A DNA stretch of 64,000 nt from Promethearchaeota archaeon (GCA_030599585.1 JAUVNS010000001.1:64001-128000), one strand, 5' to 3'; numbered from the stretch's first letter, positions 20,183-55,393 are shown. The notes: generated by a model not told the origin, from the sequence alone. Made by a program: numbers and translations.

Positions 20183-21220
20183 TTATTGCAACAAGTTATA
20201 AAGCGATTTCGCTATAGTATAAAAGGCATATTCAACATTTTCACCAGTTAAAGCGCTGGTTTCAATGTATCCTAAATTAAGGTAACTCGCGAGATCAGAC
20301 CCTTTTTCAGAAGTGCTCTCTGAAGATTGGCCAATATCTTTTTTATTTCCAATAATATAACCTGTTAAAGCCGGTCTATCTGTTAGCTGGTTCTGAATGT
20401 CATAATACCAATTTGAAACGCTTTCTAGCGAGTTTGGCTTTGATAAGTCGAAGATGAGGAATATGCCATCAGATCCTAAATAGAATTGTTGTCTCATAGT
20501 TTCGAATTTTGCTTGTCCTGCTATGTCCCATAGAACCAATTGTATGTAAGACTCTTCTATTTGAAATATCTTATCCGAGACGTGCACCCCAAGTGTTGGA
20601 ATATAATGCCTTCGAAACGCGTTGTTAGTGAATCTTAATATTAACGAGGATTTACCAACAGAGGGATCGCCACAGATAATTATTTTAAATTTATAATTAA
20701 TTAACTTAGCTTCTTTTATTTTCTGATCAGGAAAAGCTTTTGCGTTTTCCTCAGCGATCTCGTTATTTTTAAACTCGGTTAAAAATTGGTCAATAGTGAG
20801 GAAAATTTCATTTAAAATATCTATATAATTCTCTCTTGGAGCTTTTGATTTTTGCAAGTGTGCAACTTTTTCAGCCACTTCTTCAAATGGAGCCTGAAAA
20901 TAATTCAAATATTTATAAAAGATAACATCGTCAGATTCCTTAAACAATAAGGTAATTGCTCCTTGCCCAATTCCGCCTCGTCTGGACTCATCGTTCCATT
21001 TTATATATTTTATTAATCCTTTTAAATTTAAGGAAGGAAATGGAAGAATTACTAACGATTCAGGAATAAGACCATCTTCTCCTGATAGAACTGTAATTGT
21101 CTTAACACTAATATGAATTCTACTCGATTGAGGAACATCTCCTAACCATACAAATGGATTTGGCCCAAGTTCGTCGTCCAATTCTGTGTACAATATTCCC
21201 TTTATTAGTTTAGCTTCCAT
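20183..21220 (-). CDS. uDENN/longin-domain Rab-like small GTPase
   Basis: G1 GDPSVGKS, G2 YIPTLG, G3 WDIAGQ, G4 NKKD, G5 ETSAL; N-terminal LDDELGPNP…PFP…DESRRG domain. Confidence 0.88.
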   Translation of the reverse strand: MEAKLIKGILYTELDDELGPNPFVWLGDVPQSSRIHISVKTITVLSGEDGLIPESLVILPFPSLNLKGLIKYIKWNDESRRGGIGQGAITLLFKESDDVIFYKYLNYFQAPFEEVAEKVAHLQKSKAPRENYIDILNEIFLTIDQFLTEFKNNEIAEENAKAFPDQKIKEAKLINYKFKIIICGDPSVGKSSLILRFTNNAFRRHYIPTLGVHVSDKIFQIEESYIQLVLWDIAGQAKFETMRQQFYLGSDGIFLIFDLSKPNSLESVSNWYYDIQNQLTDRPALTGYIIGNKKDIGQSSESTSEKGSDLASYLNLGYIETSALTGENVEYAFYTIAKSLYNLLQ

Positions 21221-21364
21221 CGTAAGGCGATCGTAATAAAAACAAAAAATTGAAAATTTCTTAATATTATTATCGTGTAGAAATATAAATATTAACGCTT
21301 TTTAGAGTGAAAAAGTTTTAATTATGTTTGAAATACAAATAAGAAGAGATTAAAATGGTAAAAA

Positions 21365-21652
21365 TTAATCTTTTATATTTTCTAAGAGTGAGATTATCCG
21401 ATAAATAGTAGTTCGCGAATGAAATGGAATATTTGCATCTTGAGATAAGTCTGTAATCATATACATTACACTACTGGCAAGAACTGCGGGAGAATCATCT
21501 TCACGCTTTAATTCCTCGATTCCTTTGCTCGCAACTCGTTTTATATTTCTTGGAACGCCTCGGTCGTTAATCATTCCATTAAGTAGGTAATCCACTTTTG
21601 AAAATGCATCCAAGATATCTTCAGTAAATTCTGGTCCCCTTGGCATAATCAT
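21365..21652 (-). CDS. UPF0147 family protein
   Basis: INDRGVPRNIKR…DLSQDANIPFHSRTTIYRIISLLE. Confidence 0.88.
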   Translation of the reverse strand: MIMPRGPEFTEDILDAFSKVDYLLNGMINDRGVPRNIKRVASKGIEELKREDDSPAVLASSVMYMITDLSQDANIPFHSRTTIYRIISLLENIKD

Positions 21653-21791
21653 CTCACTTTTTAATTTAGTCTAAAAAAAATAATAATAAAATACTCTATT
21701 ACTTGACTTTTTAAATATTGATTAAAATTTAATTTTTTTGATTTTCTAATATAAATAAATAGAGAAGTAGGGAAAGAATAATGATAGAAGA

Positions 21792-26165: not shown

Positions 26166-26209
26166 AGTTTATATGTGCAACTCCAAAAATAAATAATAAA
26201 AAAATAAAA

Positions 26210-27589: not shown

Positions 27590-28651
27590 ATGAAAACCTT
27601 GATCACTAATAAATATCTAATATGGCTTATTTTATCATTTTTACTTGTTGCTAGCTTTTTTCTTGGTATGTTTTTATTTGCTTCGTCTCTAGAAGTGACT
27701 ATCATTATCCTGGTAGTATTGATCATCTCTTTCTGTATCCAAATTCTTTTAATTTTAAATTTTGCGAGCAGTAGAATAAAAAATCGATTGAAGATTGGAA
27801 TGCTAACTACGCACTCGTTGAATTTGTTATTTGCTATCGTTATTGGATTTTCCATTTCGGTGATGGAATCTGATTTCAAATATAATTTTGGGATAGTAAT
27901 GATTCCTTTACTTCTAATATTGAGTCTCGTTATAACAGATAAATATGATAACGATATGAAGGGTTTTACCCTTGAGAAAGAGGAAAAGCCGAAAAAGAAA
28001 TCAACAAGACCCGTTATAGAATTCGAAAACAAAAAGTACGTTTTTTCGTTAAATTCTTTAATAATATTAGGAGTTGGCACACCTCTTCTAGCAATAGTCA
28101 TTTATTTCTTCTTCGATATTGAGGCTCAATTTTGGCTACACGAAATAGTTGTGAAACAGACTATCTATTTCCTTAATTTATTTTTTGACATGGATGTATC
28201 TACTAGCTATATTCCAAGTGGGAAATATCATTGGAGTTTTAATTTTGTAGGGAGTATTGATGGAGACCCGTTAAGTAGTATTTATTTTGAGACGTTCTGT
28301 ACGGGCATTCAAGCTATCTGCGTATTCGCAGGTATCATCATTTGCACTCCTCACTCCCAAGATAAACGCACTAACAAGGATATAATTTGGAGAAAAGCTA
28401 AAGCATTAATTGTATCTTCAATTATCTTCTACGTGGTAAATGTTATTCGAATGTTAATCCAGATTGAATTATATTACCTTGGATATCCCTGGGATAGCAT
28501 ACATGTTTCGATCAGCGCAGCAAGCTCTTTCATTGCAGCTATTATTATTCTCTTACTTCATAAATGGATCCCCGAATTCATCATTAGCATCATATATATT
28601 GGCACTTTAATTAGCAAAAGAGTTAAACGCGTGAGAAAGCCAAAAGAATAG
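27590..28651 (+). CDS. archaeosortase/exosortase family transpeptidase with an extra N-terminal TM domain
   Basis: Catalytic triad context FCTG…NVIR…H (WDSIH) in a polytopic membrane protein. Confidence 0.8.
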   Translation: MKTLITNKYLIWLILSFLLVASFFLGMFLFASSLEVTIIILVVLIISFCIQILLILNFASSRIKNRLKIGMLTTHSLNLLFAIVIGFSISVMESDFKYNFGIVMIPLLLILSLVITDKYDNDMKGFTLEKEEKPKKKSTRPVIEFENKKYVFSLNSLIILGVGTPLLAIVIYFFFDIEAQFWLHEIVVKQTIYFLNLFFDMDVSTSYIPSGKYHWSFNFVGSIDGDPLSSIYFETFCTGIQAICVFAGIIICTPHSQDKRTNKDIIWRKAKALIVSSIIFYVVNVIRMLIQIELYYLGYPWDSIHVSISAASSFIAAIIILLLHKWIPEFIISIIYIGTLISKRVKRVRKPKE

Positions 28652-29616: not shown

Positions 29617-29624
29617 GATTTGTT

Positions 29625-31148
29625 TTAAGATATATACCTCAGTAGTAAATCTTGCGTGCGATTAAGAAAATCTTGAAGATGTTGGTTAATGATATCTTTT
29701 TTACTTTCTTCATCAATTAAAAAGAGGACATATAACTCGTAGTTTACGATTTCTACTCGCTTTAACAAGATTATTGAGTTTGAAACTCTAAAGATTGCTT
29801 CTTCTTTCTCAGACAATTTAAATTTGTAAAAAATCTTGAATAATGTAGTAAACTGAGGGGCAACGACTTCAAACACATTTATTAACTCTTCAGAATTTTG
29901 CATATTAGTAATTTTCATTGCTTCTGGGGTGAAGTGCTCTGCTAACACTAAACCATCGCTACTCAAAAGGAGCACTAACGATGAGCCTGTGAGCGAAGTA
30001 AATTCTCGAAGATTTTGTTCGATTAAATTCCTATTTGGGCTCAATTTTGCTATACCAGATGAAAAAGCTCTTAAAATTGAAAAGATTTTAAACATACTCG
30101 TCACATATATTTCAGGACTTCCGATAGAAGATAAATTTGTTAAGTTTTTTTTAAGGTCTTTTATGTTTGATTGCATTTCAATAGAATCGATAATGTCAGG
30201 ATCTCCTTTCGAAAAAATGTAAATTATTGGAGTATTCTGCTCCAAATTTTTCAAAGCAGTTCTAATTTTTTTGAGATATTCAATGCTTTCGCTGAACCTC
30301 TCTTCATCTCGAAGGTCGATAAAATAAAAGAGCAAATCAGCTTCAAATAAGTAAATTTGAGATTTATCGAGATATCCTTCTTGATAGCGTCGTTGTCCCC
30401 CTAAGTCCCACAAAAAGATATTTGTTCCTAAAGCTTCTATTGAGCTTACATCTGCTCCTCTTGTGGGTTTTAATCCAATCAGCTTTGAGAATTTTCTATC
30501 AACAGATAATATAAAGCTGGTTTTTCCGCTATTATCAAGACCAGAGAGAATAATTTTCATTTTTCTCTGTGTTGTTATTGGTGTTGATGGTGTTTGTTCA
30601 ATGTTAATTATTTTTTCTAAGAGCTTTTTAAAATCTCTTGCTACCTGTTCTTGAGGTAATAGTTCTTCAGTGATATGTTTATCAAATTCTGAAAAAAAAT
30701 CAGTAATTACATTTTTTAATCGTTTTATATTATCGTATAAGAAACTCCTTTTTTTTTCATCTATTAATATGCAAAAAGCACTTGCTAGTGGTATTTCTGA
30801 AAATTTAGCATCAATAAAATGAAAGTAACTAAGCGAAGTTAAATGAAAATCAGGAAATGGCATGATACCAAAATGGTGGTATTTCTTCAATGCGTTAAAA
30901 TCTTGTTTAAAAATATTTCCATCCCCAAGTAATAAGGAGATATTTTTAATCGCAATCTGCGTGTAATCTCTTAAGGAAATTCCAAGTTTATTCGCCTCTC
31001 CATTATCTGAATTGGCTTTTTCCCGCAGGTCCTCATCAATAGGCTCTGGAAACATATAAATTGGTTGAGGTCCGAGTTTATCGAATGCAGAGAATAATAT
31101 TCCTTTAATTATAGACGATTCAATTAATTTATCAATTAATTTATCCAT
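29625..31148 (-). CDS. uDENN/longin + Arf/Rag-like GTPase + roadblock fusion
   Basis: FSAFDKLGPQP N-terminal domain; GLDNSGKT, PTRG, WDLGGQ, SKGD, TSMF; C-terminal VLLLSSDGLVLAE roadblock. Confidence 0.85.
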   Translation of the reverse strand: MDKLIDKLIESSIIKGILFSAFDKLGPQPIYMFPEPIDEDLREKANSDNGEANKLGISLRDYTQIAIKNISLLLGDGNIFKQDFNALKKYHHFGIMPFPDFHLTSLSYFHFIDAKFSEIPLASAFCILIDEKKRSFLYDNIKRLKNVITDFFSEFDKHITEELLPQEQVARDFKKLLEKIINIEQTPSTPITTQRKMKIILSGLDNSGKTSFILSVDRKFSKLIGLKPTRGADVSSIEALGTNIFLWDLGGQRRYQEGYLDKSQIYLFEADLLFYFIDLRDEERFSESIEYLKKIRTALKNLEQNTPIIYIFSKGDPDIIDSIEMQSNIKDLKKNLTNLSSIGSPEIYVTSMFKIFSILRAFSSGIAKLSPNRNLIEQNLREFTSLTGSSLVLLLSSDGLVLAEHFTPEAMKITNMQNSEELINVFEVVAPQFTTLFKIFYKFKLSEKEEAIFRVSNSIILLKRVEIVNYELYVLFLIDEESKKDIINQHLQDFLNRTQDLLLRYIS

Positions 31149-31229: not shown

Positions 31230-32186
31230 ATGCTAGATAAAATTGCTGAATATATTAGAACAAATCTAAACATCATAGAAAAGACTGAAATTAGCCCATT
31301 TGTTCAAAATATTAACGAGAATTCCTATAAAAGCCCTCGAATATTTTCAGATATTGGTCAAGACTCAGCAGCTGTTACAAATAATAACGATATGCTCACA
31401 TTAATCACTACTGATAGAATAAAGACTAGTTATATAGAAAATTTCCCATTGGGTGCGGGATTTAGCTCAATCTTGGTCGGTGTAGACGATATATATGCGT
31501 GTGGAGGAAAACCGATAGCAGCAAGCATAATTATATCATTCAAAGATCAAATCCTTGGTCAAAAAATGATCGATGGTATTTGTAAGGGTTCGAGATTATT
31601 TCAGGTTCCAATAGTTCGTGGTCACACGAATTTAAAAGAGTTTAACGAATTGAGTTCGACTGTGATAGGCGAAATTAAGAAAGACGAGTATATATCTGCG
31701 ACTAATGCGCAAGATAAAGACGAAATTATCCTAGCTGTAGATTTTAGTGGAAATGTTGGAAAAGCAAGTAAGCTCCATTGGGATACAGTTACTTTTAAAA
31801 GCTCTGAGGAAGTTTTGAATAAAAGGAAGTCGATGAATGAAATTGCTAAACTAAAAATCGTAAACTCCGCTAAGGATATATCAAACGGAGGTATTTTCGG
31901 CACGATTTTACAGTTAATTAATTATTCCAAAGTTGGAGCGGACATAAATATAGAAAAGATCGTAATGCCTCCCGTGTTAATAGAAAAAGCTTACAATTTA
32001 GAGACCTATATGCAAATGTATTTAACAACCTCATATGTTTTAACCGCCCCAGAAAAGACAAGTCAAGATGTAGTAAAGATTTTCAACGATCATGGAATGT
32101 TTGCTGCTGTAATTGGAAGGATAAGGAATGAACAAGAATTAAATATTACTGACGGTCAAGATACAATTAAAGTTATAGAATTTTAA
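31230..32186 (+). CDS. AIR synthase-related protein (PurM/ThiL/SelD superfamily)
   Basis: GQDSAA, VDDIYACGGKP, VRGHT, AKDISNGGIFGT. Confidence 0.85.
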   Translation: MLDKIAEYIRTNLNIIEKTEISPFVQNINENSYKSPRIFSDIGQDSAAVTNNNDMLTLITTDRIKTSYIENFPLGAGFSSILVGVDDIYACGGKPIAASIIISFKDQILGQKMIDGICKGSRLFQVPIVRGHTNLKEFNELSSTVIGEIKKDEYISATNAQDKDEIILAVDFSGNVGKASKLHWDTVTFKSSEEVLNKRKSMNEIAKLKIVNSAKDISNGGIFGTILQLINYSKVGADINIEKIVMPPVLIEKAYNLETYMQMYLTTSYVLTAPEKTSQDVVKIFNDHGMFAAVIGRIRNEQELNITDGQDTIKVIEF

Positions 32187-32658: not shown

Positions 32659-33219
32659 ATGAGTTTTAATTTCAAAAATAAATTTAAGGGAACAATCTCT
32701 ATTATTGGCACGAGTGACATCGAACCAAGAACAGAAGAGATAGCTATAGAATTAGGACGGTTATTAGCTATTAATAATTATGCCGTGGCGTGCGGGGGGT
32801 TGTATGGTGTTATGGAAGCCGTTTGTAAGGGCGCTAAAAAAGAAGGTGGTTTTACTATAGGTATTATTCCTTACGAAGATAAGAGTCGAGCAAATGAGTT
32901 TATAGATGTTGTAATACCAGTCCCTTTTTCTCAGGCTCGAAATATTGTTGTAGTATTGAGTGGTGATGCTTGTGTCGCTGTAGAAGGAAAGGCTGGGACT
33001 CTTTCTGAAATCTGTTTTGCTTGGATATATGGGAAACCTATTATTGCACTAACTGGTGAAATTCATGGGTGGTCTTCCAAAATGGCGGGAAAAAAAATCG
33101 ATGACAGGAGGAGTGATTCGATCTATGGAGCTACATCAGCTCAAGAAGTCGTTGACCGATTGAACGACATTTTTAAAACTAAACCCAATATCAAGTATAA
33201 GATGCCTACTGAATTTTAA
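32659..33219 (+). CDS. TIGR00725-type SLOG/LOG family protein
   Basis: CGGLYGVMEAVCKGA…GIIP…ARN…GTLSEI. Confidence 0.88.
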   Translation: MSFNFKNKFKGTISIIGTSDIEPRTEEIAIELGRLLAINNYAVACGGLYGVMEAVCKGAKKEGGFTIGIIPYEDKSRANEFIDVVIPVPFSQARNIVVVLSGDACVAVEGKAGTLSEICFAWIYGKPIIALTGEIHGWSSKMAGKKIDDRRSDSIYGATSAQEVVDRLNDIFKTKPNIKYKMPTEF

Positions 33220-33390: not shown

Positions 33391-34356
33391 TTGACAATTC
33401 AATTTTTAGATGAGAAAAAGAAAACAAAAGAATCCGTTAGCCCAAGTAAACTCCTTTTCACAGGATTGGACAATGCTGGAAAAACGACTATAATCCAAGG
33501 AATTCAGCGTGAGTTTTCGAAAATCGCGTTTCTCAAACCTACACGAGGTGCTCAGAGAAGAATTTTTGAATTTATGGGACGGGAAATTGCAGAATGGGAC
33601 CTCGGGGGACAGATAAGTTATCGAATCTCTTATTTGAAAAACCCTGGAAAGTATTTTGACGACACTGAGATCACTATTTATGTTATAGATGTTCAAAATC
33701 GTGTCAGGATTCCCGAAGCCCTTAGTTATCTAAAAGACGTAGTTGACCGGTTTAAAAAACTTGAAATAGCTCCACCAATATATGTGTTCCTCCATAAATA
33801 CGATCCCGCGCTAAGAAGAAATGCCCTAAACGAAATGAAGAATCTCGAAGTAGAAATTAAGGATAAAATAAAAAGAACCGTAGATTATAAGGAAATCTTT
33901 TATTACACGACATCTATTTATGATTTGCCGAGTATAATTAAAGCCATGTCCGAAATCCTGCTCAGTTTGTATCCGAAATCAGAATTAATTGAAAAAACTA
34001 TAATAGAATTTGGCAAAAAAACCTCTTCTGACGGAGTTGTACTTTTGGATGATAATTCTCTTATCGTTGGAAGCTATTATAAAGACGAGGAAATAAAGAA
34101 TCTCCTCACGGCGAGTACCCCTTATTTTTTGACTTTAAACGATTCATTTATCTTTACCGAAGTACAACCAGGACGCCAACATGAAGAAAATCACATGATT
34201 GTACAAAGATATGGAAGGAATTTTATCTTCAAACAACTTACATTTAAAGAGGGATCGAGTCCTTATTACATCCTTATGCTTAAGCAAGATACGAATATAA
34301 ATAAAGACGAAATTGAAACCTTTGCTAATCTCTTAAAACAAATTTTATATAGTTAA
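33391..34356 (+). CDS. Rag-like small GTPase (Arf-like G1/G3) with a C-terminal roadblock domain
   Basis: GLDNAGKT, PTRG, WDLGGQ, HKYD, TSIY; C-terminal GVVLLDDNSLIVGS; TTG start. Confidence 0.88.
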   Translation: MTIQFLDEKKKTKESVSPSKLLFTGLDNAGKTTIIQGIQREFSKIAFLKPTRGAQRRIFEFMGREIAEWDLGGQISYRISYLKNPGKYFDDTEITIYVIDVQNRVRIPEALSYLKDVVDRFKKLEIAPPIYVFLHKYDPALRRNALNEMKNLEVEIKDKIKRTVDYKEIFYYTTSIYDLPSIIKAMSEILLSLYPKSELIEKTIIEFGKKTSSDGVVLLDDNSLIVGSYYKDEEIKNLLTASTPYFLTLNDSFIFTEVQPGRQHEENHMIVQRYGRNFIFKQLTFKEGSSPYYILMLKQDTNINKDEIETFANLLKQILYS

Positions 34357-34485
34357 CTTCTACTCTTTTTAAAACCTTTTTGTCAACATTAATAAAATCG
34401 AATTTATTTATTAGTACTATATATTGTCAAATCTTTCTAAGAGAAAATTTTCCTAATTTGATAATTGGTCGAGGAGGTAAACACT

Positions 34486-35550
34486 GTGATAATCTGTTCT
34501 AATTGTGGGACTACTAACAATGAATCAGCAGGTAATATTTGTAGAAAGTGTGGAGCATTACTTCCGAGGTCACGTAGACCACCAAGAATGAGAATTGCTC
34601 CAAAGAAAAAAGAAATCTTAGAACCTCAGGGAGAAAAGACAAAGGTAAAAACAAAAACAAAAACAAAAAAAACTCCACAACCAGCTAAATCCCAGAAAAA
34701 ACCACCAGTTAAGAAGGAACAAACAAAACCTACAAGTTTGGATCTTCATGAAATCCCGAAAGTTAAAGCATTGAATAACGACCAAGTCGAAATTTCGGAA
34801 GATGATATAGATGAAGAGGAAATAATTGAAGATGATTTCGATGATGATTTAGACGATCTGGAAGAAGATACAGATTTTCTACAGGAAATTGCTCCACAAC
34901 CATTCAGAGGCTCGATAATTGCTGATAAAGGCGTTTATGGACAACCTAAACCAAAAAGAAAGGTTTCACGTTCTAAGTCCAAAAAAGGCATTCAAGACGG
35001 AGTTGGTTCCGAAAGCACTGAATCCAACCTTCTAAAGCAGAAACAATTGGAAGAAGATATGACTAAAGTGCTTTCATTCTTGTCAAAGAAAATTACTGTA
35101 AAACCCTTAAAACCAGTTAAAAAAGGGGTAAAAGCTTCATCAAAACCTAAAGATTCCATACCTCCCTCGAGTATGAACGAAATCTTGAAAGATTTGTTAA
35201 AATTAGACTTACACATTGAAGCGTCTGCGATTATTAAAAAAGATGGGACAATATTAGCCTCAGCTCTTAGTTCAAGGATTTCAGATTCCCTTTTTGCGAC
35301 AATTGCAGCCAACCTGTCAATGATGGGAGTGGATATAATTGAAGGGTTAAGTGCTGGAACCTTATTAAATATGTCTATAAGGGGCACTGATGGAGTACTA
35401 GACTTAGCGCCTATCAGCTTTAAAAACCTTCCTGGAGACGAGATGATCTTAATTATTTTTTCGCATCCCAAAATCAAGAGTGGAATAATACACTTCGCAG
35501 TCAGTATTGTAAAGAAACGAGTAAAGCAATATCTAGGTTTATCAAAATAA
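34486..35550 (+). CDS. zinc ribbon + low-complexity linker + roadblock/LC7 (MglB/LAMTOR-like) protein
   Basis: GGAGG then GTG at 34486; CSNC…CRKC; Lys-rich then Asp/Glu-rich tracts; IEASAIIKKDGTILAS…GTLLNMSIRGTDG roadblock. Confidence 0.82.
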   Translation: MIICSNCGTTNNESAGNICRKCGALLPRSRRPPRMRIAPKKKEILEPQGEKTKVKTKTKTKKTPQPAKSQKKPPVKKEQTKPTSLDLHEIPKVKALNNDQVEISEDDIDEEEIIEDDFDDDLDDLEEDTDFLQEIAPQPFRGSIIADKGVYGQPKPKRKVSRSKSKKGIQDGVGSESTESNLLKQKQLEEDMTKVLSFLSKKITVKPLKPVKKGVKASSKPKDSIPPSSMNEILKDLLKLDLHIEASAIIKKDGTILASALSSRISDSLFATIAANLSMMGVDIIEGLSAGTLLNMSIRGTDGVLDLAPISFKNLPGDEMILIIFSHPKIKSGIIHFAVSIVKKRVKQYLGLSK

Positions 35551-39038: not shown

Positions 39039-39491
39039 TTATTTTTCTGGTTCAGCTCTAAACCTGTATTCTGCAACCCAAGATGTGTGAGCCTGAGAGA
39101 TAAGATTTTCAATTCGCTCTACAAACAATTTTTGCTTATCTTGAGCTTTACCATATTCATTTATGTTTGCTTTGAAGTAGTACTGCTCTTTTTTCAATAA
39201 TTCAGCAACCGATCTATAATTTACCCATTTTTCTTGAAATTTCAGAAATCTTATGGTTGGTGCTATAAAGGCTATAAGTATGGATGTAATCACGGAAAGA
39301 ACTCGCAAAATAGGGAATTCTTGGAAGATAATATCTATGATGATTAAAAGTGGAGTCATTGATGTTAAAGCAATTAAAGTTAATTGTAGAGTTGTATTCC
39401 AGTTTTTATTAAATCTAGCCTTGTTTTCATACCATTGTCTTTGATTTTCATATCTATCCTTTAAATATGTTTCAAATTCGTTATCGTTCAT
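39039..39491 (-). CDS. DUF4231 / SLATT two-TM domain protein
   Basis: YLKDRYENQRQWYENKA…2TM…FQEKWVNYRSVAELLKKE…FVERIE. Confidence 0.85.
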   Translation of the reverse strand: MNDNEFETYLKDRYENQRQWYENKARFNKNWNTTLQLTLIALTSMTPLLIIIDIIFQEFPILRVLSVITSILIAFIAPTIRFLKFQEKWVNYRSVAELLKKEQYYFKANINEYGKAQDKQKLFVERIENLISQAHTSWVAEYRFRAEPEK

Positions 39492-41189: not shown

Positions 41190-41831
41190 ATTATCTACAA
41201 AATATTTCTAATTGATAGCGACAGTGGGATTTCACTTCTAGAAACTACTTTTAAGGAATTAAAATATAAAAACAATGGTAATAATGTTATACCCGGTTTT
41301 TTTAATGAAATAAATGAGATAATCGATAAAATTCAAGCTGCTATGGTTAAGGGTAAAAATAAAGATGATATGACTAGAATTGTCGAATCGGAAAATTCTA
41401 CAATTATTATTGTTTACCATCCTCCCTCAAGGATTTTATATTGCTCTATTTCTGATGCTGATGATGATATAGATAAATTAATTAATGTAATTCATAAAAT
41501 ATCTAGTAGGTTCTTTAAAAAACATCAATCGGACCTAGCATTATTTAGAACTACTTCAGAGAAATCGAGATTTCAGACGATTAAAACGGATATAGAAAAT
41601 ATATGTCAAGGGGGGCGTATAGCTGAAGTCTTTCCAAGATTACTCGTGGGCGAGAAAGTCTTGCCCAAAATCGTTTCAATGGGGATGATTGACGACGAGG
41701 ACCTTCAAGTTGCCTTGAAATGCACTGGAAAAACCTCACCCTTAAGAATAGCAAGGGAGTTAGCTAAATCTCGGAACGACGTAAATAGCATCTTAAAAAA
41801 ATTAGAACAGTTAGATATCGTTAATTTCTAA
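41190..41831 (+). CDS. longin-domain + winged-helix protein (probable non-canonical ATT/ATC start)
   Basis: Frame is open from 41184 (IIYKIFLIDSDSGISLLE…PGFFNEI), completing a longin fold; C-terminal PLRIARELAKSRNDVNSILKKLEQLDIV is HTH-like. Confidence 0.7.
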   Translation: MIYKIFLIDSDSGISLLETTFKELKYKNNGNNVIPGFFNEINEIIDKIQAAMVKGKNKDDMTRIVESENSTIIIVYHPPSRILYCSISDADDDIDKLINVIHKISSRFFKKHQSDLALFRTTSEKSRFQTIKTDIENICQGGRIAEVFPRLLVGEKVLPKIVSMGMIDDEDLQVALKCTGKTSPLRIARELAKSRNDVNSILKKLEQLDIVNF

Positions 41832-46356: not shown

Positions 46357-49300
46357 TTATTTATTTGATGGTATAATAATTTGCTTGTTTATGAGAGTTT
46401 CTATTGCATCTATTATGAGATCTTGATTTTTTTCGTGTACCACTTCAAATATAGTCTCCAGATGAAATTCCTGCTTATTCTTAGCGATCGAGTATATTAC
46501 ATTTAAGATTCGTGTTTCCATCGAATTTAACTCGCTTTCTTTTCTTAATCTTGCAATAAACTTAGCATCGTTGATTTTAAAAGCGTCTTTATAATATAAC
46601 TCTACATATTTTGTTATGATAGGAGGTAATTGTGCTTCAAACTCATGAATTGCTCCGTCCCAGCTTTCTATTAGCTGTGAAAGATCGAACATGATTCCAA
46701 GAGACAAATCTGATATCAATTTCTTCAATCGGTCTGAAGCTTTTTCATTGAGTAAAAAAATCATTCGTAAATCTTGTCGGTCACAGATTAGGCAATAAAA
46801 ATATTTAAAATCTAATTCTAAAATCGTCCTACTACCATCCGAGTCATCAAGATTGGTTGAATCACCATCGACTTCCCTTTTACCTACCATTTCTTCTCCA
46901 ACTGTAATAATAGCTTGGATGAAGCCTGAAAAAAGTTCTTTTTTGTGCTTCTCTAAAATAGAATAACTTTTTGAATAGAGTGGAATGCCGCTATACCTGT
47001 GTATGGCCACAATAGCTTGAATGTTCTGGATATCTTTGAATCTTTGGGTTTTTGACAGTAAATCTGCTTCTTTTCTCCTTCTTCGTGGTAAAATCACGTA
47101 AGATCTCAAGCTTAATATTCCTAAAACACTTATAATCGCCACTGCAATAAAGAATATAATAAACATTAATAACACAGGAAATTCTGGTTCGCCAATTACC
47201 AAGAGAAATGAAGATTGCATCGATTTATAAAGAACATTTTCTGTTGAAATAATTAAAGACACCTTAAAACTTCCATGGATATTTTCTGGGATCTCAAGTT
47301 CAATTTCATAAATTCCATTTCCTACTTCTTCAAAATTACCTAATCCAAAGTCCCACGAATACGAGATTGTAGTATTCTCAATAGAAATGGCTGAAATAAG
47401 TTCAGTTAAATTAATTCTAATGACTAAAGAATTTCCAGCAAGACTTTCAATTGAATCTTGAAAATCAATAGTATCAACTTTCATTTCTATTTGATTAACT
47501 AAAATCTGAAAGTAAAAGGTTGAGGATGTGTAATTCGGATGTAGAAACCTAACATAAACAGAATTAATCCCCAAATCGAAATTAGCAAGATCACATACAA
47601 CAGATGTGTTATACCAATAGTTAGCAGTTTGAGTAAAATCTTGATTATAACTACCAATAGCAATAATGGCACTACCACCATCAAGAAAAACTTTTTCTAC
47701 ATTTGCGAGAGCTCTTATTGATAGAGAGAATACGTCATAATATGTGATTTGAATTAAACTATTCGCATCAATTTCTTGTGAATCTATATATAACGACAAA
47801 TTAACTGTTTCAGCGGTTATAAAAAATTGGAATGAAAAATAAGCTTCAGAATAATTAGCTTGCTCAAATTTAACAGATACAGTATTGATTCCTAATTCAA
47901 AGTTAGCTCCATCTATTACAATATCTGTAGAAAACCACGTGAGATAAGTTACATTTTCATTAATGTTAAAAGAAAACATTTCACCTATTATGGTTATATT
48001 TCCTCCGGAAAGAAAAATACCCTCTCCCATAGCATATGCTTGTGCAGCAATTGTTATATTCTCCTTAAGCATTACTTCAATTAGAGCGTTTTCGAGGATA
48101 GATTGACTATTGATTGATACGTTAAGTTGGACTGATTGTTCTCTAACTAATAATTGAAATGAAAAGTATGTTGTTGTATAATTTTGCTTTTCGAATTTAA
48201 TTGAAACGGTATTAATCCCTGAACTGAAATTTATCGCTGAAAAAGTTAAGGATAAATTATACCAATTGGCTCCATATTCAATGAAATTTGTAATATAAAA
48301 TTCGCTATTCCAAGAAATGTAAGCCTCATCAATGTAATTCGAATCAATCTCACCATAGACTCTCGCAGAGATTGTTATATTTTGTTTAAACATTACTTCA
48401 ACTAACTGATCTTCTGCAATTTGTTGAGAATTCAAGTATAATGAAAAATCGACCGATTGTTCTTCTACAAGTAGTTGAAAATAAAAGATTTCGTGTTGGA
48501 AATTATCTTTTATGAATTCTATTGCTATACTGTTTAATCCTGGAGTATAATTTGATGGCACTATTTGAATTGATGTATTATACCAATCTGCTCCTACCTC
48601 AATTAGAGTTCTATCTTGATCTCCACCTTGCCAAGTTATTAACGCTCCATTTACATAATCTGCTTCAATTGTTGCGAATGCTTTTGCTGAAATAGTAATG
48701 CTTTCCATATACATTATTTCAACTATCTCATTCTCCAAAATTGGTTGAGAATTGATAAATACAGACAGATCGACTGGTTGCTCATATACTAACAATTGGA
48801 AATAGAATATATCGGTTTGATATTTATCCATTTCAAACTGTATCCCAATTAAATTTAATCCAGGTGAGTAAATTGATGGATTAAATTGAATGGAAGTATT
48901 ATACCAAAAATTAGAATATTCGTTTAATGTCTGTTCATAACTATTGATTTTCCACGAGAAATTTCCTCCCGTTAAAAGATTGTCATCAATCAAGGCTCTA
49001 GCTTGAGTAGAGATGTTTATCTCTTCCATAAATATAACTTCAATTATTGAATTTCGATAAATTTCTACATTATCAATATAAGCAGTGATATTGACACTCT
49101 GTTCTACAATCTCAAATTGATATATGTGCGTTTGAGGTTCAAAAGAAGGAGCAGAAAAATTGAAGTTAAGCTGTTTTATACCTAAGTTATTAGTAAATGA
49201 AGTATCAAATTCAATATTATAATAACCACCCGGTAAATTTTCAATGCTATATAGGTCAGGATTTGATATATTAACACCTACAGTCGCTCCATCAATTCCT

Positions 49301-51828
49301 TCGCTATCTAATAGTGAATAATATCTAAATTCTATTGTGCTATTTGCGTGCAACTCTATATTATAATCAGACTGAAGTCGTTGCACGTTAGTTTCCTCTC
49401 CAAGGTTAATTTTCAAAGTCAAATTATAATCTAAGAACCCTACTTTTGAAGATTCAATTAAAATCTCATAAAAACCATTTGATCCTAATAATGAAGTATC
49501 TAAAATGGTCTCATAAATTCCAAAACCGGCTTCTACAAAATCTACTGTTCCTGAGGTCCAATTATAGGAAATTAATGCATTTAAAATAAAATCATTGTTA
49601 TCAGAATCTGTTAAATTTACTTGTACGGGTATAATATCTCCAATAAATGCGTCTGTTATGGAATCAGAAATGGCATCATTAGGTTTAAGAAGTGAGAATG
49701 AACTCTGATGTATAACTAAAAAACTAGCGTTTAATCCCCCTATAGAAGTGCCATTAGACCAAAAGAGCGTGTAATCATATTGTCCTCCAGTTGTATTTAA
49801 TGCATCAAAAAATAACTCAGAAAAGAACACGCTTCCATTTGACAAGGGTGAATTTACTTCTGAATACCACTGATTTCCTTCGGGATCAAATATCGTTAAG
49901 TTTACTTCTGTTGAACCAAGATTATTAGGAATTTCACCGCTGTAATTTACTTGAGTTTTAATTCGTGTTGATTCGCCGGTATTAAAACTGGTGTGTGTCC
50001 ATTCACCTTGTTTCAACATTTTTGTATTTGTTATATCGAGATAATTTGGAGAGGTCGCTTTAAATGACCACCAACCAGGATAAAGCGCATTTGTTTTATT
50101 AATTTTTAATAATAAATCGCCAATATTTCCGTTTTCAAATGGTCGAGAAAGAAGAGTTGGGTCTAGAGCGTAGAGAAACTCCCAATTTACAGGTTTATCA
50201 ATTATAAATTCAAAATCCGAATACTGAGAAGGCATGTAGAAATTATGTGAAAAATACCAATATACTGAGCCATTTTCTAAGATTTCATAAGAGATTCCTT
50301 CAACTATAGTTTGCCCTACCCTTGAAGTAGTTTCGTGATATCCATACAAAAAAGTGTCCAATTCAAAAGTAAGCGAAGGTGAACTTGTATTTGCGGTAAG
50401 AACTACAGGATTTACACCCCAATTCCCCGTAATATTTAACTCTGATTCTCCCCATTGGTCTCCTTGAGTAAGAGAATACCCGTTTAACGTAAGATTTATA
50501 TCGCTTTGACTTGAATTTGCGAGCGTAATAAGTACTAAAGATAAATTATCAAACCAAAAGAGTTGTTGGAATCGTTCATCAAAACCGGAATATGTTATTG
50601 TACCACCACTCATAATACCAACTGAGATATTAAACTCTTGATTATTTTGAATTTCTTCAAATAAGCTCGAAGTATTCGACCATAAGTCTAGATGTATTTC
50701 TCCAGTACTTAACCAAGTTCGCCTACCACTTCCATCACCAACAATATCCCCTAAACCTTTAGAGTAAATTTTTTTATTATTTATCTCACAATACAAAAAA
50801 TTTTCGTTAGAATCCATTGCGTATTCAGCATAGTAATCGAAACTTATATAACCATCAATAATTTGGCCTCGAGGAATAGTTATGTTTTGATAGATTTCTG
50901 AAAAGTCGTTTTCGTAATAAGATACCTCTATCCTTCCGTCTCTGGCGGGATTTCCTACTAAGCTGACATACATCGCTGTTTCATTTTCCATGGTAGAAGA
51001 ACCAAAATTACCTCCTATTGTAGCATTATCATATCCCCAATGATCGAAGCTATCATAGTATTCTATACCGTCATAGATATATTCGTAATAGTCAATATCG
51101 TAACCCCACCATTGAACCGATCCATCGGAATCCATAGTAATTTTTATATTTGTTGTTTTAATCCAAGGGCTAAAAAATGATGCTTTATTTCCTGTGTCAA
51201 CATATTGTAGTATGTTATTCTCATCGTAAAAACAAACTATGTCCCAATCTTCTTCTATTTCAAATCTGTCAAAATGAACTCGTATTAATGACGCATTATT
51301 TTGAGTTATTTCACTATGGATGTTTGCAGGAGTAGCAGGATCTCGAGATAAATCCGCGGTGTAATTATGTCGAGGCGGAGATGTGTCTGGAATATTTGTT
51401 AACGATACATTTACTCTATAAGTAGAAACTTCTGAGTAGTCGTTGTTTTTAACCCATTCTCTTGTATCTTGAATGTTTCGGATGTTTGTTTCTATTTTTG
51501 ATATCTCCCAATCATGAACATCGTCGAGAGTGTAATTAATTTCGAGTTCTTCCTGACTCGTTAAAGAAATTAGTTGATTATTTTCATATAAGTTACCGTA
51601 ATCTGTTATATTTAAAGATATTTCATTTCCTTCAAATAAAATTGAATCAGAATCGGCAAGTAAGGGTGACTGGGAATAATAATTAAAGTCGCTGTCTATT
51701 TTTTTAATATTTTTGGAATTTGGAATGAGAAAACTACTTGAAAGAAATATACCTAATATAATAATAAGATAGGCTATTCTCAGAACTAATGATTTTTTTA
51801 AAAGTGAATTATTAGAAACCTTTTTCAT
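46357..51828 (-). CDS. large single-pass surface protein: CUB-like domain, Ig-like repeats, TM, cytoplasmic longin + wHTH
   Basis: N-terminal TM/signal; IRVHFDRFEIEEDWD…MDSDGSVQWWGY (CUB-like); five ~107-aa repeats; TM near 47183-47108; IVAIHRYSGIPLYS…LFSGFIQAI longin. Confidence 0.82.
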   Translation of the reverse strand: MKKVSNNSLLKKSLVLRIAYLIIILGIFLSSSFLIPNSKNIKKIDSDFNYYSQSPLLADSDSILFEGNEISLNITDYGNLYENNQLISLTSQEELEINYTLDDVHDWEISKIETNIRNIQDTREWVKNNDYSEVSTYRVNVSLTNIPDTSPPRHNYTADLSRDPATPANIHSEITQNNASLIRVHFDRFEIEEDWDIVCFYDENNILQYVDTGNKASFFSPWIKTTNIKITMDSDGSVQWWGYDIDYYEYIYDGIEYYDSFDHWGYDNATIGGNFGSSTMENETAMYVSLVGNPARDGRIEVSYYENDFSEIYQNITIPRGQIIDGYISFDYYAEYAMDSNENFLYCEINNKKIYSKGLGDIVGDGSGRRTWLSTGEIHLDLWSNTSSLFEEIQNNQEFNISVGIMSGGTITYSGFDERFQQLFWFDNLSLVLITLANSSQSDINLTLNGYSLTQGDQWGESELNITGNWGVNPVVLTANTSSPSLTFELDTFLYGYHETTSRVGQTIVEGISYEILENGSVYWYFSHNFYMPSQYSDFEFIIDKPVNWEFLYALDPTLLSRPFENGNIGDLLLKINKTNALYPGWWSFKATSPNYLDITNTKMLKQGEWTHTSFNTGESTRIKTQVNYSGEIPNNLGSTEVNLTIFDPEGNQWYSEVNSPLSNGSVFFSELFFDALNTTGGQYDYTLFWSNGTSIGGLNASFLVIHQSSFSLLKPNDAISDSITDAFIGDIIPVQVNLTDSDNNDFILNALISYNWTSGTVDFVEAGFGIYETILDTSLLGSNGFYEILIESSKVGFLDYNLTLKINLGEETNVQRLQSDYNIELHANSTIEFRYYSLLDSEGIDGATVGVNISNPDLYSIENLPGGYYNIEFDTSFTNNLGIKQLNFNFSAPSFEPQTHIYQFEIVEQSVNITAYIDNVEIYRNSIIEVIFMEEINISTQARALIDDNLLTGGNFSWKINSYEQTLNEYSNFWYNTSIQFNPSIYSPGLNLIGIQFEMDKYQTDIFYFQLLVYEQPVDLSVFINSQPILENEIVEIMYMESITISAKAFATIEADYVNGALITWQGGDQDRTLIEVGADWYNTSIQIVPSNYTPGLNSIAIEFIKDNFQHEIFYFQLLVEEQSVDFSLYLNSQQIAEDQLVEVMFKQNITISARVYGEIDSNYIDEAYISWNSEFYITNFIEYGANWYNLSLTFSAINFSSGINTVSIKFEKQNYTTTYFSFQLLVREQSVQLNVSINSQSILENALIEVMLKENITIAAQAYAMGEGIFLSGGNITIIGEMFSFNINENVTYLTWFSTDIVIDGANFELGINTVSVKFEQANYSEAYFSFQFFITAETVNLSLYIDSQEIDANSLIQITYYDVFSLSIRALANVEKVFLDGGSAIIAIGSYNQDFTQTANYWYNTSVVCDLANFDLGINSVYVRFLHPNYTSSTFYFQILVNQIEMKVDTIDFQDSIESLAGNSLVIRINLTELISAISIENTTISYSWDFGLGNFEEVGNGIYEIELEIPENIHGSFKVSLIISTENVLYKSMQSSFLLVIGEPEFPVLLMFIIFFIAVAIISVLGILSLRSYVILPRRRRKEADLLSKTQRFKDIQNIQAIVAIHRYSGIPLYSKSYSILEKHKKELFSGFIQAIITVGEEMVGKREVDGDSTNLDDSDGSRTILELDFKYFYCLICDRQDLRMIFLLNEKASDRLKKLISDLSLGIMFDLSQLIESWDGAIHEFEAQLPPIITKYVELYYKDAFKINDAKFIARLRKESELNSMETRILNVIYSIAKNKQEFHLETIFEVVHEKNQDLIIDAIETLINKQIIIPSNK
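47494..49104 (-). repeat. five tandem ~107-aa (~321-nt) Ig-like repeats inside the large surface protein
   Basis: Units begin EQSVNITA, EQPVDLSV, EQSVDFSL, EQSVQLNV, ETVNLSL and share WYNTSI…GLN/GIN…F…Y…FYFQLLV. Confidence 0.85.
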
Positions 51829-51989
51829 ACTATCCCCTGTTGTTAAATAAAAAATAATTATAAAACTCATAAAAAATAAAATTAATAAATTTAAGGGAAT
51901 ATAAAATGAATCTCTATTCGAAATTTACTTTTTAGGAGTTTTAAAGTTTAAATTTAAGGAGTTTATGAATAATTTGCCAATTCTATTAG

Positions 51990-52567: not shown

Positions 52568-53566
52568 CTATAGATTTTCAATTTCTGAAGGAATAAAACC
52601 AAAAGTGTCTAAGAAACGCTTTCGCACGTCTGAAATGTCATAAATTTGTGTTTGAGCACCACTAGTTTCTACAACGAAAGAGCCTACAGTTGAACCTAAA
52701 CGACAAGAATCTTGCAAACTCATATTAAGAATCATTCCAGACAAAAAGCCTGCGCGGTATCCATCCCCGGCACCTGTAGTGTCAATTACTTTATTCGGAT
52801 TCGAAATCGGAATTTCTATGGACTCTACTTTTCCAGATGGAGTTTTTGTTACAATTTCTGAACCCTCCGACCCCTTAGTTTTTACTATAGTACTAATATA
52901 CTCGAGTAAATCTGTTTCGTTCATCTCTGTCTTGCTCATAACTTGATTTATTTCGTACGTATTTCCTATAAGAAATTCAGATTTGGCTAAAATGCTCATT
53001 AAATTGTCTTTGGAGAATAAGGGAGTAATTTGTCCAGGGTCAAATATCATAGGAATACCTAACTCGCTTAATTGATCAGCAAAATTCTTCATTGCATCAA
53101 TACCTTGGGTAGAATTTATAGCATAGGCATATTGTTCAGGATTTTTAATCTTTCTCCGTAAATCTATATTTTTACCATCATCTAAAGCGCCCCCATGAAA
53201 AATAATCATTTGATTCGATTTCTCATCGTTTACAATGTAGCATGCTGCAGTAAACAGATCAATTTGAATATCTACATTCAAATCGATGTTTTGGAATTTT
53301 GTTATGTGATCTTTATAACCTAAGCTTTCGAAATCTTTACCAACCGAACCTAAGAGTGAGACGGGGGATATATTTAGTAATCCAAGGTTATACGCGATGT
53401 TTCCCGCAGTTCCGCCGAAATGCTGGATTCGGCTATTGGCAGTTACTGTGCTTTGGTATACTTTTTTCTCGTAATCAATAGACACAGCATTTACAAAATT
53501 CTCGTCAAATCCCATGATGTAATCGAAAGCAAGGGAACCCAATACTATTACTTTATCTCGTTTCAT
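52568..53566 (-). CDS. PfkB family nucleoside/adenosine kinase
   Basis: GSLAFD, FGGTAGNIAY, FDPGQ, DTTGAGDGYRAG. Confidence 0.92.
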   Translation of the reverse strand: MKRDKVIVLGSLAFDYIMGFDENFVNAVSIDYEKKVYQSTVTANSRIQHFGGTAGNIAYNLGLLNISPVSLLGSVGKDFESLGYKDHITKFQNIDLNVDIQIDLFTAACYIVNDEKSNQMIIFHGGALDDGKNIDLRRKIKNPEQYAYAINSTQGIDAMKNFADQLSELGIPMIFDPGQITPLFSKDNLMSILAKSEFLIGNTYEINQVMSKTEMNETDLLEYISTIVKTKGSEGSEIVTKTPSGKVESIEIPISNPNKVIDTTGAGDGYRAGFLSGMILNMSLQDSCRLGSTVGSFVVETSGAQTQIYDISDVRKRFLDTFGFIPSEIENL

Positions 53567-53687
53567 TTCAGTCTTTACCTTATACAAATTGAAGTAAATC
53601 GATAATATATTATTTTTACGCATTAAATTTAGACTTTATGAAATAACAAACTACTAATAAAGAAATAAAATAAAAGAAAGGCTATTG

Positions 53688-53954
53688 TTACAAATTATCC
53701 AACGGTAAATCTAAATCTACTTCAGCAGATTTAAGCTTTTTCATGAATTCTACAGCCCCAACTTCATTTACCATTAATTCTAATAGATTTTCGTAGAGGT
53801 GCTCGATGTTATCCTGCCCGATTTGAAAGTATATATCTTCAGAGGGAAGAGTTATCTTAAAAATTTCATAAAGGCCTCGAATACAGTCTTTAATATTCTC
53901 AAAATTAATTAATGCCTTTTTCGTCGATTCGTAAACAATATCAGTTTTTTCCAT
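53688..53954 (-). CDS. hypothetical helical protein
   Basis: 88-aa ORF, ATG start. Confidence 0.65.
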   Translation of the reverse strand: MEKTDIVYESTKKALINFENIKDCIRGLYEIFKITLPSEDIYFQIGQDNIEHLYENLLELMVNEVGAVEFMKKLKSAEVDLDLPLDNL

Positions 53955-54343
53955 TTTTAATTATTACCGCTTAAACTTGTTTCCCGTTGTATTAAAAGAA
54001 GAAATGAAGGCTTAAAAAATAGTTGTTATTTTGACAATTGCGTGACTAAAGAACAAATAACAAAGAATACAATACATCTTATATTATGTTTCAAGGCGGG
54101 CTAGTTCTCGTTTAAGAATATTTGGTAAAACTTTAGACAATCAAGTAATTAGCTATCGAAAACTAGTTTCATTCATAGTTTACATTCCCAAATTGATAAT
54201 AAGATATTTTATTTTTGTCTGTGCAAAAACCTTGCTTTAATTCCTAATAACCTAGATATAAATATTTTTAATTATTTTTTTTTATTATTCCGTATGCAAA
54301 AGAAAATGTAATTTTTTTTAACAAATTATAATAATTTTTCACC

Positions 54344-55393
54344 ATGAAGAAGCTAATTGATGCTGTAATATATACAGATGTTCACGATGAACTCGGTCCG
54401 AATCCCATTCTTTGGCTACCGCCAAATTTACCTGAATCTGTCAGAATGTTAGTAGGAATTAAAACTGTAACATTACTTACAGGTGACCAAGGGTCTGTAC
54501 CAGATTCGCTATTAATAATCCCTTTTCCTTCACTTAAATTAAAAGGATTAATTAGATATATAGAAAGAGAAGATGAAAGTAAAAGAGGAGGATTCGCAAG
54601 AAGTGCAATAACATTCTTGTTTAAAGAAACAGATGATGTGATTTTCTATAAATATATGGGTTATCTTAAAGCTCCCTTCGATGAAACTTCGAGAAAAATA
54701 ATTGAATTAGAGAACAACCATGCAGAAAGTTCAAAAATCTTTGAAGAGATTAAAATTTTACGAGATAGCGTCAGTGAATTACTAGATGATTTTAGAACTA
54801 AAGAAATAACTTCACCAGCATCAAAAGAATTTCCAGAAAAACGAGTTAAAGATGATAAAGTAGTAGATTATAGACTTAAACTCGTAATAGTTGGAGATCC
54901 TGGAGTAGGTAAGACATCTACCATACTAAGATTTACTGATAACGCGTTCTTAAGAACATATGTTCCAACACTTGGGGTATCCATTACTGAAAAATTATTT
55001 GATACCAAAAGCGGAGTAATAGAAACGATCTTATGGGACATCGCAGGACAAGCAAAATTTGAGACGATGAGAAGACATTTCTACCAAGGCTCTGAGGCGA
55101 TATTACTTATTTTTGATCTAACTAATAGAAATTCCTTTACAAGTATAAAATCGTGGTATCATGACGTTATGAAAAACATGGAGAAACATCACCACAAAAT
55201 GTCGGGTTATATTTTTGGAAATAAAAGTGATTTAATCGAACTACGAAAAGTTAAATTAGTTGAAGCTTTAGCTTTAGCTAAGGAATTGAATTTAAAATAC
55301 ATAGAAATATCTGCCCTAACTGGTAAAAATGTCGAATACGCTTTTTATGATATTGCCAACACAGTCGTAAAAATGCGTTTGAACAAACCTTAA
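54344..55393 (+). CDS. uDENN/longin-domain Rab-like small GTPase (paralogue of 20183-21220)
   Basis: HDELGPNP…PFP…DESKRG; GDPGVGKT, YVPTLG, WDIAGQ, NKSD, EISAL. Confidence 0.88.
   Translation: MKKLIDAVIYTDVHDELGPNPILWLPPNLPESVRMLVGIKTVTLLTGDQGSVPDSLLIIPFPSLKLKGLIRYIEREDESKRGGFARSAITFLFKETDDVIFYKYMGYLKAPFDETSRKIIELENNHAESSKIFEEIKILRDSVSELLDDFRTKEITSPASKEFPEKRVKDDKVVDYRLKLVIVGDPGVGKTSTILRFTDNAFLRTYVPTLGVSITEKLFDTKSGVIETILWDIAGQAKFETMRRHFYQGSEAILLIFDLTNRNSFTSIKSWYHDVMKNMEKHHHKMSGYIFGNKSDLIELRKVKLVEALALAKELNLKYIEISALTGKNVEYAFYDIANTVVKMRLNKP

Follow-up and report, generated by a model that had tools for sequence, protein, structure and literature searches.

A stretch of Promethearchaeota DNA (GCA_030599585.1), corresponding to bases 64001-128000 of contig 20 in a 4.85-Mb, 52-contig genome (~32% G+C; hereafter the window, 64,000 nucleotides in full), carries between positions 20183 and 55393 five small GTPase genes, here called G1 to G5 (Table 1). 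The closest relatives of its proteins belong to metagenome-assembled genomes (MAGs) labelled Promethearchaeota or Lokiarchaeota from marine sediments and cold seeps, and the public sequencing runs that contain the stretch are DNA only, from marine-sediment and cold-seep metagenomes, with no RNA run listed. Pfam assigns G1 and G5 to the Ras/Rab-like GTPases and returns Gtr1_RagA as the best match of G2, G3 and G4; the P-loop, DxxGQ and the [N/S/H]KxD box are intact in all five, which bears out the count of five small GTPases in ~35 kb made in an earlier description of the window from its letters only (the sequence-only reading). The subject of the present analysis is the N-terminal domain that precedes four of these GTPases, its predicted kinship with longins of GTPase-activating proteins (GAPs), and the conserved neighborhood in which the fusions lie.

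Table 1. Genes and other features of the window, with positions counted from its first nucleotide
Feature	Position	Strand	Length (aa)	Domains, matches and setting
G1	20183-21220	-	345	Predicted FLCN-type longin 1-~165; Ras/Rab-like GTPase 179-341; Pfam Ras 148 bits
G2	29625-31148	-	507	Predicted longin; Rag-like GTPase (SKGD); roadblock tail; Gtr1_RagA 71.6 bits, Robl_LC7 E=0.037
G3	33391-34356	+	321	Rag/Gtr-like GTPase (HKYD); roadblock tail; no longin; Gtr1_RagA 93.5 bits
G4	37238-38650	+	470	Predicted longin 1-156; Rag-like GTPase 167-~340 (NKFD); roadblock ~345-470; Gtr1_RagA 94.7 bits
G4, codons of G21-P22	37298-37303	+		
G4, codon of R91	37508-37510	+		
G5	54344-55393	+	349	Predicted FLCN-type longin; Ras/Rab-like GTPase; Pfam Ras 152 bits
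AIR-synthase-related gene	31230-32186	+		Pfam AIRS, AIRS_C; upstream of and co-directional with G3
SLOG gene	32659-33219	+		LDcluster4 1e-40; TIGR00725 125.5 bits, above cut-off; upstream of and co-directional with G3
Zn-ribbon/roadblock protein	34465-35550	+		Zn-ribbon; Lys/Glu-rich low-complexity stretch; C-terminal roadblock/LC7; directly downstream of G3
Small wHTH-like protein (probable extent)	41190-41831	+		Roadblock/longin-like N-half; winged helix-turn-helix (wHTH)-like C-end; part of the conserved block
Surface protein	46357-51870	-	1837	Single-pass; signal/transmembrane segment; large ectodomain; transmembrane segment ~1562-1590; 240-aa cytoplasmic tail
Archaeosortase H	27590-28651	+		NCBIfam 315 bits, above cut-off
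SLATT 2TM-effector gene	39039-39491	-		Between G4 and the transglutaminase-like gene
Gelsolin/villin-like open reading frame	19713-20045	+	110	Single domain; beside G1
Paired multi-pass membrane proteins	57005-58595	+	240 and 248	Two adjacent paralogues

The N-terminal domain spans ~160 residues and is common to G1, G2, G4 and G5, with 34-37% identity to the copy in G4; an alignment of the four retains D18, G21, P22, P24, K43 and a PFP motif among its invariant residues, together with the signatures D-x-x-G-P-x-P and K(T/N)I, in agreement with the shared domain described in the sequence-only reading. Modeled alone with AlphaFold2 (AF2) from a 99-sequence alignment, the G4 domain reaches a predicted local distance difference test score (pLDDT) of 90.6 and adopts the longin topology β-β-α-β-β-β-α-α (strands 9-18, 21-28, 65-71, 76-86 and 94-104; helices 34-49 and 115-155). 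In a VIA-align search of this model against 48,161 PDB representatives, with chain identities taken from PDB entry titles and residue ranges, the top match was 8YQG, the longin of a Lokiarchaeota Roadblock-Longin protein (Z 18.6), followed by C9orf72-SMCR8 and Lst4 (12.6 each), an FLCN-complex chain (6nzd_H, 12.5), GATOR1 (11.2), FNIP2 (11.0), the Rab guanine-nucleotide exchange factor (GEF) DENND1A (10.9), SMCR8 (10.7) and the SEA complex (10.2). The C9orf72/SMCR8, Lst4, FLCN, NPRL2 and FNIP2 chains thus occupy Z 10.2-12.6, above the generic longins of TRAPP, VAMP7, Sec22 and AP sigma at 9.8 or less, and the Foldseek ranking agrees, with chains of FLCN, SMCR8, C9orf72 and GATOR1 type ahead of generic longins.

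At the level of sequence, Folliculin (PF11704) is the sole non-GTPase Pfam family that recurs among the N-domain members (18/99 at E<=0.05, best E=4.3e-6). No Pfam DENN match occurs in the whole genome at E<=0.1, the longin here preceding a GTPase domain and not DENN; Pfam NPR2 was likewise not found in the genome, a blank that weighs little since the query matched no control either. By predicted fold and motif, we assign the N-domains with high confidence to the longins of the FLCN/SMCR8/NPRL2 (uDENN) class, the class that the sequence-only reading had proposed.

Two features of these longins carry the functional interpretation. The first is a GP dipeptide at the turn from β1 (9-18 in G4) to β2 (21-28), which is invariant in the four fusions and kept in at least 80% of the full-length family members. 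The second is an arginine in the β4-β5 hairpin, within D-x-x-(A/R)-R-G (R91 of G4, R81 of G1 and R81 of G5), a hairpin motif that we take to resemble those of FLCN and SMCR8. A GP motif before β2 has been described in the longins of FLCN, NPRL2, SMCR8 and C9orf72, and in Asgard longins of FLCN/SMCR8 type together with an arginine finger, a combination held to be specific to GAP longins and absent from those of DENND, TRAPP and adaptin (PMC12290439). As both the position of the GP and its tie to an arginine finger match that description, we count them in favor of a GAP-type longin.

The arginine is distributed unevenly across the family. GP and arginine occur together in 45 of 58 Rab-type representatives; the Rag-type set numbers 26, with G2 and G4 added to 24 representatives, and has both in 14, GP without arginine in 10 (two with lysine instead), arginine without GP in one, and a gap at these columns in one. 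The Rag-type sequences form two groups, a G4-like, arginine-bearing group of 435-486 aa (all but one of them 462-486 aa), with the arginine in 10 of 10 members including G4 itself, and a G2-like group of 479-579 aa without the ARG motif. G2 has a one-residue deletion at the hairpin and no arginine there, a state shared by its orthologues across the order; the one paralogue elsewhere in the genome (C34:149001-150053) has neither GP nor arginine.

Among the Rag-like proteins, Gtr1_RagA is the best-scoring Pfam family throughout (cut-off 22 bits), and Arf also matches at 57-76 bits. The full-length AF2 model of G4 (pLDDT 73.6) comprises the longin, the G domain and a roadblock tail of topology α-β-β-α-β-β-β-α (345-469); in Foldseek its GTPase and roadblock part lines up with RagA/C, Gtr1/2 and LokiRagO along ~300-320 columns, the C-terminal roadblock domain among them, and this part matches 8YL2 at E=1.2e-36. 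G3 aligns with LokiRagO 8YL2 at residues 10-318 (E=1.6e-87), and its nearest genomic paralogue is on contig 32. G2 has a ~20-aa insert after β2 and aligns with G4 across residues 7-470. These comparisons confirm the C-terminal roadblock domains ascribed to three of the GTPases, namely G2, G3 and G4, and the placement of a regulator-type longin and a switch on a single chain, of which G1, G2, G4 and G5 are four instances. G2 was also considered as a pseudo-GTPase and rejected as one, the P-loop, DxxGQ and SKxD being kept in most G2-like representatives. Within the genus, orthologues of G4 share 67-94% identity with it, against 40-45% in other families of the order, and they occur in nearly every searched genome of that order. 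One orthologue at 92-95% identity sits in a MAG labelled 'Candidatus Nanopelagicaceae bacterium' (DATKTW010000091.1) and others at 65-83% identity are assigned to Hermod-, Hod-, Thor- or Odinarchaeota; all of these names probably stem from mis-binning or mis-assignment.

The Ras/Rab-like fusions are paralogues of one another, and their orthologues stand in tandem in more distant species of the genus. In G1 the GP lies at residues 19-20 and there is no C-terminal cysteine. In a tree of all G domains of the genome, G1, G5 and the C34 paralogue form one clade and G2 and G4 are sisters; therefore one longin ended up on two different GTPase classes. What came afterwards, as read from the sequences, is duplication, with one copy per GTPase class then losing the arginine.

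The sheer number of GTPases in this region is no sign of a system, and we rejected it as such: the whole genome encodes 87-89 small GTPases, the expectation per 35 kb is 0.63, placing them at random gives a 35-kb stretch with at least five in 17.6% of trials, and another such stretch exists on contig 32. The longin family behaves differently. An iterated hidden Markov model finds five members in the 4.85-Mb genome, four of them within these 35 kb and the fifth on C34, so that the clustering of this paralogue family is significant against the background that GTPases at large do not exceed.

The cluster is also conserved. The order G1-G2-G3-G4-G5 is shared by species of the genus. A span of no more than 35 kb holds three or four of the longin-family genes in 16 or more additional genomes of the host's family, which represent five genera. 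In another family (locus L001, G4 44% identical) a block is retained that comprises orf164, an eL13-like gene, the wHTH gene, a transglutaminase-like gene, G4, NERD, G3, SLOG, an AIR-synthase-like gene, G2 and archaeosortase H, its proteins being 32-47% identical to those of the present locus. In four loci from three families of the order an AIRS-SLOG pair stands ahead of G3 in the same orientation, with synteny seen in L001, L002, L003 and L006, and in genome G026, where G4 is 80 kb away, G2 and the AIRS-SLOG-G3 unit remain divergently paired. A check of synteny across Lokiarchaeia, as the sequence-only reading had called for, therefore returns a conserved cluster.

The spread of the family bears on its age. 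Of 201 genomes sampled from the phylum, a profile search found the longin family in 62, which fall in 6 of 27 families and include all 40 genomes of the host's own family; the same profile did not find it in the remaining 21 sampled families. The matching public records are almost all labelled Promethearchaeota or Promethearchaeia, and most full-length members carry a GTPase domain, as do 5/5 in this genome. A Lokiarchaeial innovation is at least as likely as an ancestral origin, and the idea of a compact ancestral version of the eukaryotic circuit finds no support in this distribution.

We read the locus as a conserved Lokiarchaeial neighborhood in which two small families of putatively self-regulated GTPases are built on one GAP-class longin, and give this reading, with its mechanism, a probability of roughly 0.55. 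The putative built-in GAP mechanism of the fused longins, judged by itself, is tentative and falls somewhat short of an even chance. In this mechanism, the roadblock tails would dimerize the Rag-like chains, as in Rag/Gtr dimers, and the N-terminal longins would cap the G domains of the dimer. The hairpin arginine beside the GP motif would then act as a built-in arginine finger that speeds GTP hydrolysis on its own or the partner's G domain. The paralogues that lack the arginine (G2 and, on the Rab-like side, the C34 paralogue) may be non-catalytic partners in the manner of C9orf72, FNIP2 and NPRL3, which would make the dimer asymmetric. Because the longin is covalently fused to them, Rag-like and Ras/Rab-like GTPases are the likely clients of GP-motif Asgard longins.

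Several points weigh against this reading. Most longin and roadblock platforms are GEFs or scaffolds, not GAPs. In the fold search GAP longins lead generic longins by just ~1-3 Z units, and a Rab GEF, DENND1A, scores within their range. G4 reaches 17.2-18 bits against Pfam Folliculin (E=0.0046), short of the gathering cut-off of 23.3, and the same family at E<=0.1 also matches in three bacterial or archaeal genomes used as controls. Among PDB sequences, HMMER profiles of the N-domain reach only 8YQG (E about 1e-4) and not FLCN, SMCR8, NPRL2 or C9orf72; the remaining matches are coiled-coil noise from linker helices. R91 is likened to FLCN R164, SMCR8 R147 or NPRL2 R78 by loop position and motif only. 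The predicted template-modeling score of full-length G4 is 0.55, which makes the arrangement of its domains unreliable, and LokiRagO, the homologue of G3, is a homotetramer by its PDB title, so that homomers are at least as plausible as G2:G4 heterodimers. Finally, the genes of the cluster are split over both strands and are interspersed with genes such as those for archaeosortase H, MtrH, a PfkB kinase and a methyltransferase, and the unrelated genes of the block (archaeosortase H, MtrH, PEP synthase, macro domain, eL13-like, methyltransferase) are conserved equally; the synteny may therefore reflect inherited order and not function, and suggests linkage without proving it.

One rival reading takes up the last of these points. 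The cluster may be no system at all, only what local duplications and a single domain swap left behind, still together since rearrangement is slow, with proteins that work independently. We regard this as possible, though at well under even odds. The nearest paralogues indeed pair as G1-G5 and G2-G4 in the G-domain tree, with G1 and G5 in tandem in distant congeners; the GTPase density as such is within chance; and GTPase genes of MK-D1 are described in PMC10933270 as lying generally outside operons with their regulators. Yet retention of the order G2-AIRS-SLOG-G3-NERD-G4-TGase-wHTH at 32-47% identity in another family would be unusual for archaea without selection, the divergent pairing of G2 and G3 has survived the move of G4, and the cluster is kept in five genera. 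These observations argue against a passive remnant.

The main rival concerns the longin itself, which may serve as a platform and not as a GAP, acting in dimerization, localization or GEF/nucleotide-state sensing in the style of MglB, Mon1-Ccz1, TRAPP or DENN, in which case the hairpin arginine would be structural or would contribute to binding. Generic longin and roadblock folds, including MglB, Mon1-Ccz1 and TRAPP, do match at Z 7-10; 8YQG, a dimeric longin and the nearest relative of known structure, has GP and no arginine in the aligned hairpin; G2 and the C34 paralogue lost the arginine and are nonetheless conserved; and the catalytic glutamine of DxxGQ is kept in all five G domains, so that a finger may be unneeded. 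We nevertheless consider a purely platform role rather unlikely. The D-x-x-A/R-R-G hairpin with GP is precisely the combination that PMC12290439 calls specific to GAP longins, chains of FLCN, SMCR8, C9orf72, Lst4 and NPRL2 outrank GEF longins in both fold searches, and the arginine is retained in the great part of the Rab-type and in every G4-like sequence.

That nine proteins form a single integrated, ancestral proto-Rag/Ragulator/folliculin nutrient circuit, running from a receptor through longin-wHTH proteins and fused GAP-GTPases to a roadblock scaffold, the fullest form of the sequence-only reading, is very unlikely and is not supported by a gene set on both strands interspersed with archaeosortase H, MtrH, PfkB kinase and methyltransferase genes: every domain class of the eukaryotic circuit does occur within 35 kb, the conserved AIRS-SLOG-G3 arrangement could provide a small-molecule input and paralogues of the receptor tail lie near GTPase genes above chance, but the distance threshold for that association was picked after seeing the data, the roadblock protein is missing from the block in L001, L002 and L006, the receptor and G5 are outside the order-level block, the longin family turned up in just a minority of the Asgard families sampled, which speaks against its being ancestral, and Asgard archaea are described as being without TOR kinase (10.1101/2020.10.19.343400).

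The proposed self-regulated fusions can be compared with several known systems. The longin-GTPase(-roadblock) gene type is already published, and the proteins are not of a novel sort. For Lokiarchaeum, fusions of longin-Arf-like and roadblock-Ras/Rag type are described in PMC4917890 (2016, citing Klinger et al.), and longin-GTPase, GTPase-roadblock and longin-GTPase-roadblock architectures (L-G, G-R and L-G-R) among 74 MK-D1 GTPases in PMC10933270 (2024), which also describes GTPase partners as hard to predict from genome layout. These proteins have in common with G1-G5 the lineage, the three architectures and the presence of both Rag/Arf-like and Rab-like G domains; in the readable text of the two papers, unlike here, the fused longin is not typed as an FLCN/SMCR8 longin with GP and arginine. 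FLCN-like, NPRL2-like, DENN and Rag components have been reported in Asgard archaea (10.1101/2020.10.19.343400), and 'Folliculin/SMCR8 longin domain-containing' Asgard proteins with GP and arginine finger have been proposed to share ancestry with eukaryotic GAP longins (PMC12290439, 2025, section 2.6). The latter bear the same motifs in the same structural places as the fused longins; they are featured from Heimdallarchaeia with the partner GTPases left open, whereas here the domain is fused to GTPases in Lokiarchaeia. Within the portions of the literature that are searchable as text, we did not meet an arginine-bearing FLCN-type longin as a domain fused to Rag-like or Rab-like GTPases, the pattern of arginine-bearing and arginine-less paralogues, or this neighborhood.

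Compared with the eukaryotic pairs FLCN-FNIP2, SMCR8-C9orf72 and NPRL2-NPRL3, the locus shares the longin fold and the GP before β2. In those pairs the arginine is present in one paralogue and not in the other, similar to the paralogues here, and their clients are GTPases of the Rag family and of Arf/Rab type, much as the fused partners here are Rag-like and Ras/Rab-like. The eukaryotic GAP longins, however, precede DENN, whereas here the longin precedes a GTPase and places regulator and switch on one chain; no HMMER link joins them to the fused longins, and the Folliculin match stays below its cut-off. Among solved archaeal structures, 8YQG is both the best structural and the only sequence-level PDB match of the N-domain, but it is a roadblock-longin without GTPase; the solved Loki Rags (LokiRagO 8YL2; LokiRagM 8ZLA/9M28) have no N-terminal longin, unlike G2 and G4. 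A literature search found no paper behind PDB 8YL2, 8ZLA or 8YQG. Built-in arginine fingers and dimerization-activated GTPases have precedents in the helical-domain arginine of Gα, in MglA and in the GAD class. In these the catalytic arginine comes from the same chain or from a dimer partner, as proposed here, though the supplying domains are unrelated and the analogy is one of mechanism only.

These comparisons indicate why the fusions merit attention. Which GTPases partner the longins with GP and arginine finger was left as a question in PMC12290439; the fusion suggests an answer, namely Rag-like GTPases with roadblock in one family and Ras/Rab-like GTPases in the other. The conserved arginine-less sister paralogues recall FNIP, C9orf72 and NPRL3, and as small, soluble and highly conserved prokaryotic proteins the fusions would offer a direct test bed for the longin-GAP mechanism, as well as a concrete hypothesis, by fusion or by fission, of how the FLCN, GATOR1 and C9orf72 complexes arose. 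Their interest is bounded by a gene class that is already known and a family apparently concentrated in Lokiarchaeia. A bolder extension, which we consider highly doubtful, would have an arginine-bearing G4 and an arginine-less, GP-keeping G2 form a heterodimer that merges the Rag heterodimer, the GAP-longin heterodimer and the enzyme-substrate contact; FLCN-FNIP, SMCR8-C9orf72 and NPRL2-NPRL3 would have arisen by gene fission from such a fusion, and the AIR-synthase-like and SLOG proteins would give a nucleotide-derived signal to the G3 branch.

The remaining genes of the neighborhood include three whose domains the sequence-only reading had linked to the GTPases. The separate roadblock protein downstream of G3 agrees with that description, although the domain is detected weakly (Robl_LC7 E=0.0017, below the curated cut-off; 7YH1 E=0.0085) beside Zn_ribbon Pfam matches; an orthologue follows G3 in the genus and in G024 (loci L003 and L005). 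For the two proposed longin-wHTH proteins, one of them a receptor, the single-pass surface protein stands, and its cytoplasmic tail is weakly related to the small protein at 41190-41831 (hhalign E=1e-4), whereas wHTH is seen only as weak, sub-threshold Pfam matches of the latter's C-terminal end to HTH_24 and TrmB. With hhalign, neither the receptor tails nor the wHTH protein could be matched significantly to the N-domain family or to the roadblock tails; single-sequence PDB searches with the wHTH protein and the receptor tail were empty, and a protein-cluster search returned unnamed Asgard clusters only. Orthologues of the small protein are 212-217 aa long and the frame upstream of its listed ATG (41343) is open, homologous and adds an N-terminal β-hairpin region, which places the true start ~51 codons upstream; the frame there is without ATG, GTG or TTG, and the protein is probably ~213 aa and not 162 aa long, with an ATT or ATC start at ~41190-41193.

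Eight proteins of the genome, seven with a predicted transmembrane segment, make up the family of the surface protein's tail, the other copies lying on C21, C24 (three), C27, C32 and C50; in jackhmmer the tail also picks up numerous genome-encoded proteins of ~130 aa, some of which are fused to GTPases. For four of the eight genes a small-GTPase gene is no more than 3.5 kb away (P=0.03 by permutation, at the post hoc threshold already mentioned). The second stretch with five GTPases (C32:9426-45037) holds the closest paralogue of G3 (C32:9426-10391), fused Ras-like GTPases of 587 and 338 aa, and a tail-family protein (C32:16981-18357) directly before a small Rab-like gene.

Further genes beside the GTPases are noted here as observations in their own right. 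Pfam names SLOG and SLATT as partner domains, and a SLATT gene lies 6 kb from the SLOG gene; it is missing from the syntenic blocks of relatives. An archaeosortase H relative stands beside G2 in four of five G2 loci, with MtrH between the two in this genome and in L003 and a spacing of ~2 kb in L002; the match covers just the C-terminal ~210 residues in L001, L002 and L006. The short open reading frame beside G1 matches villin (9JUS, E=5e-7) and an Asgard gelsolin-like domain (7C2F, E=7e-6) and no Pfam family at E<=0.1. Beyond G5, the two adjacent multi-pass membrane proteins are paralogues whose N-terminal halves are nearly identical.

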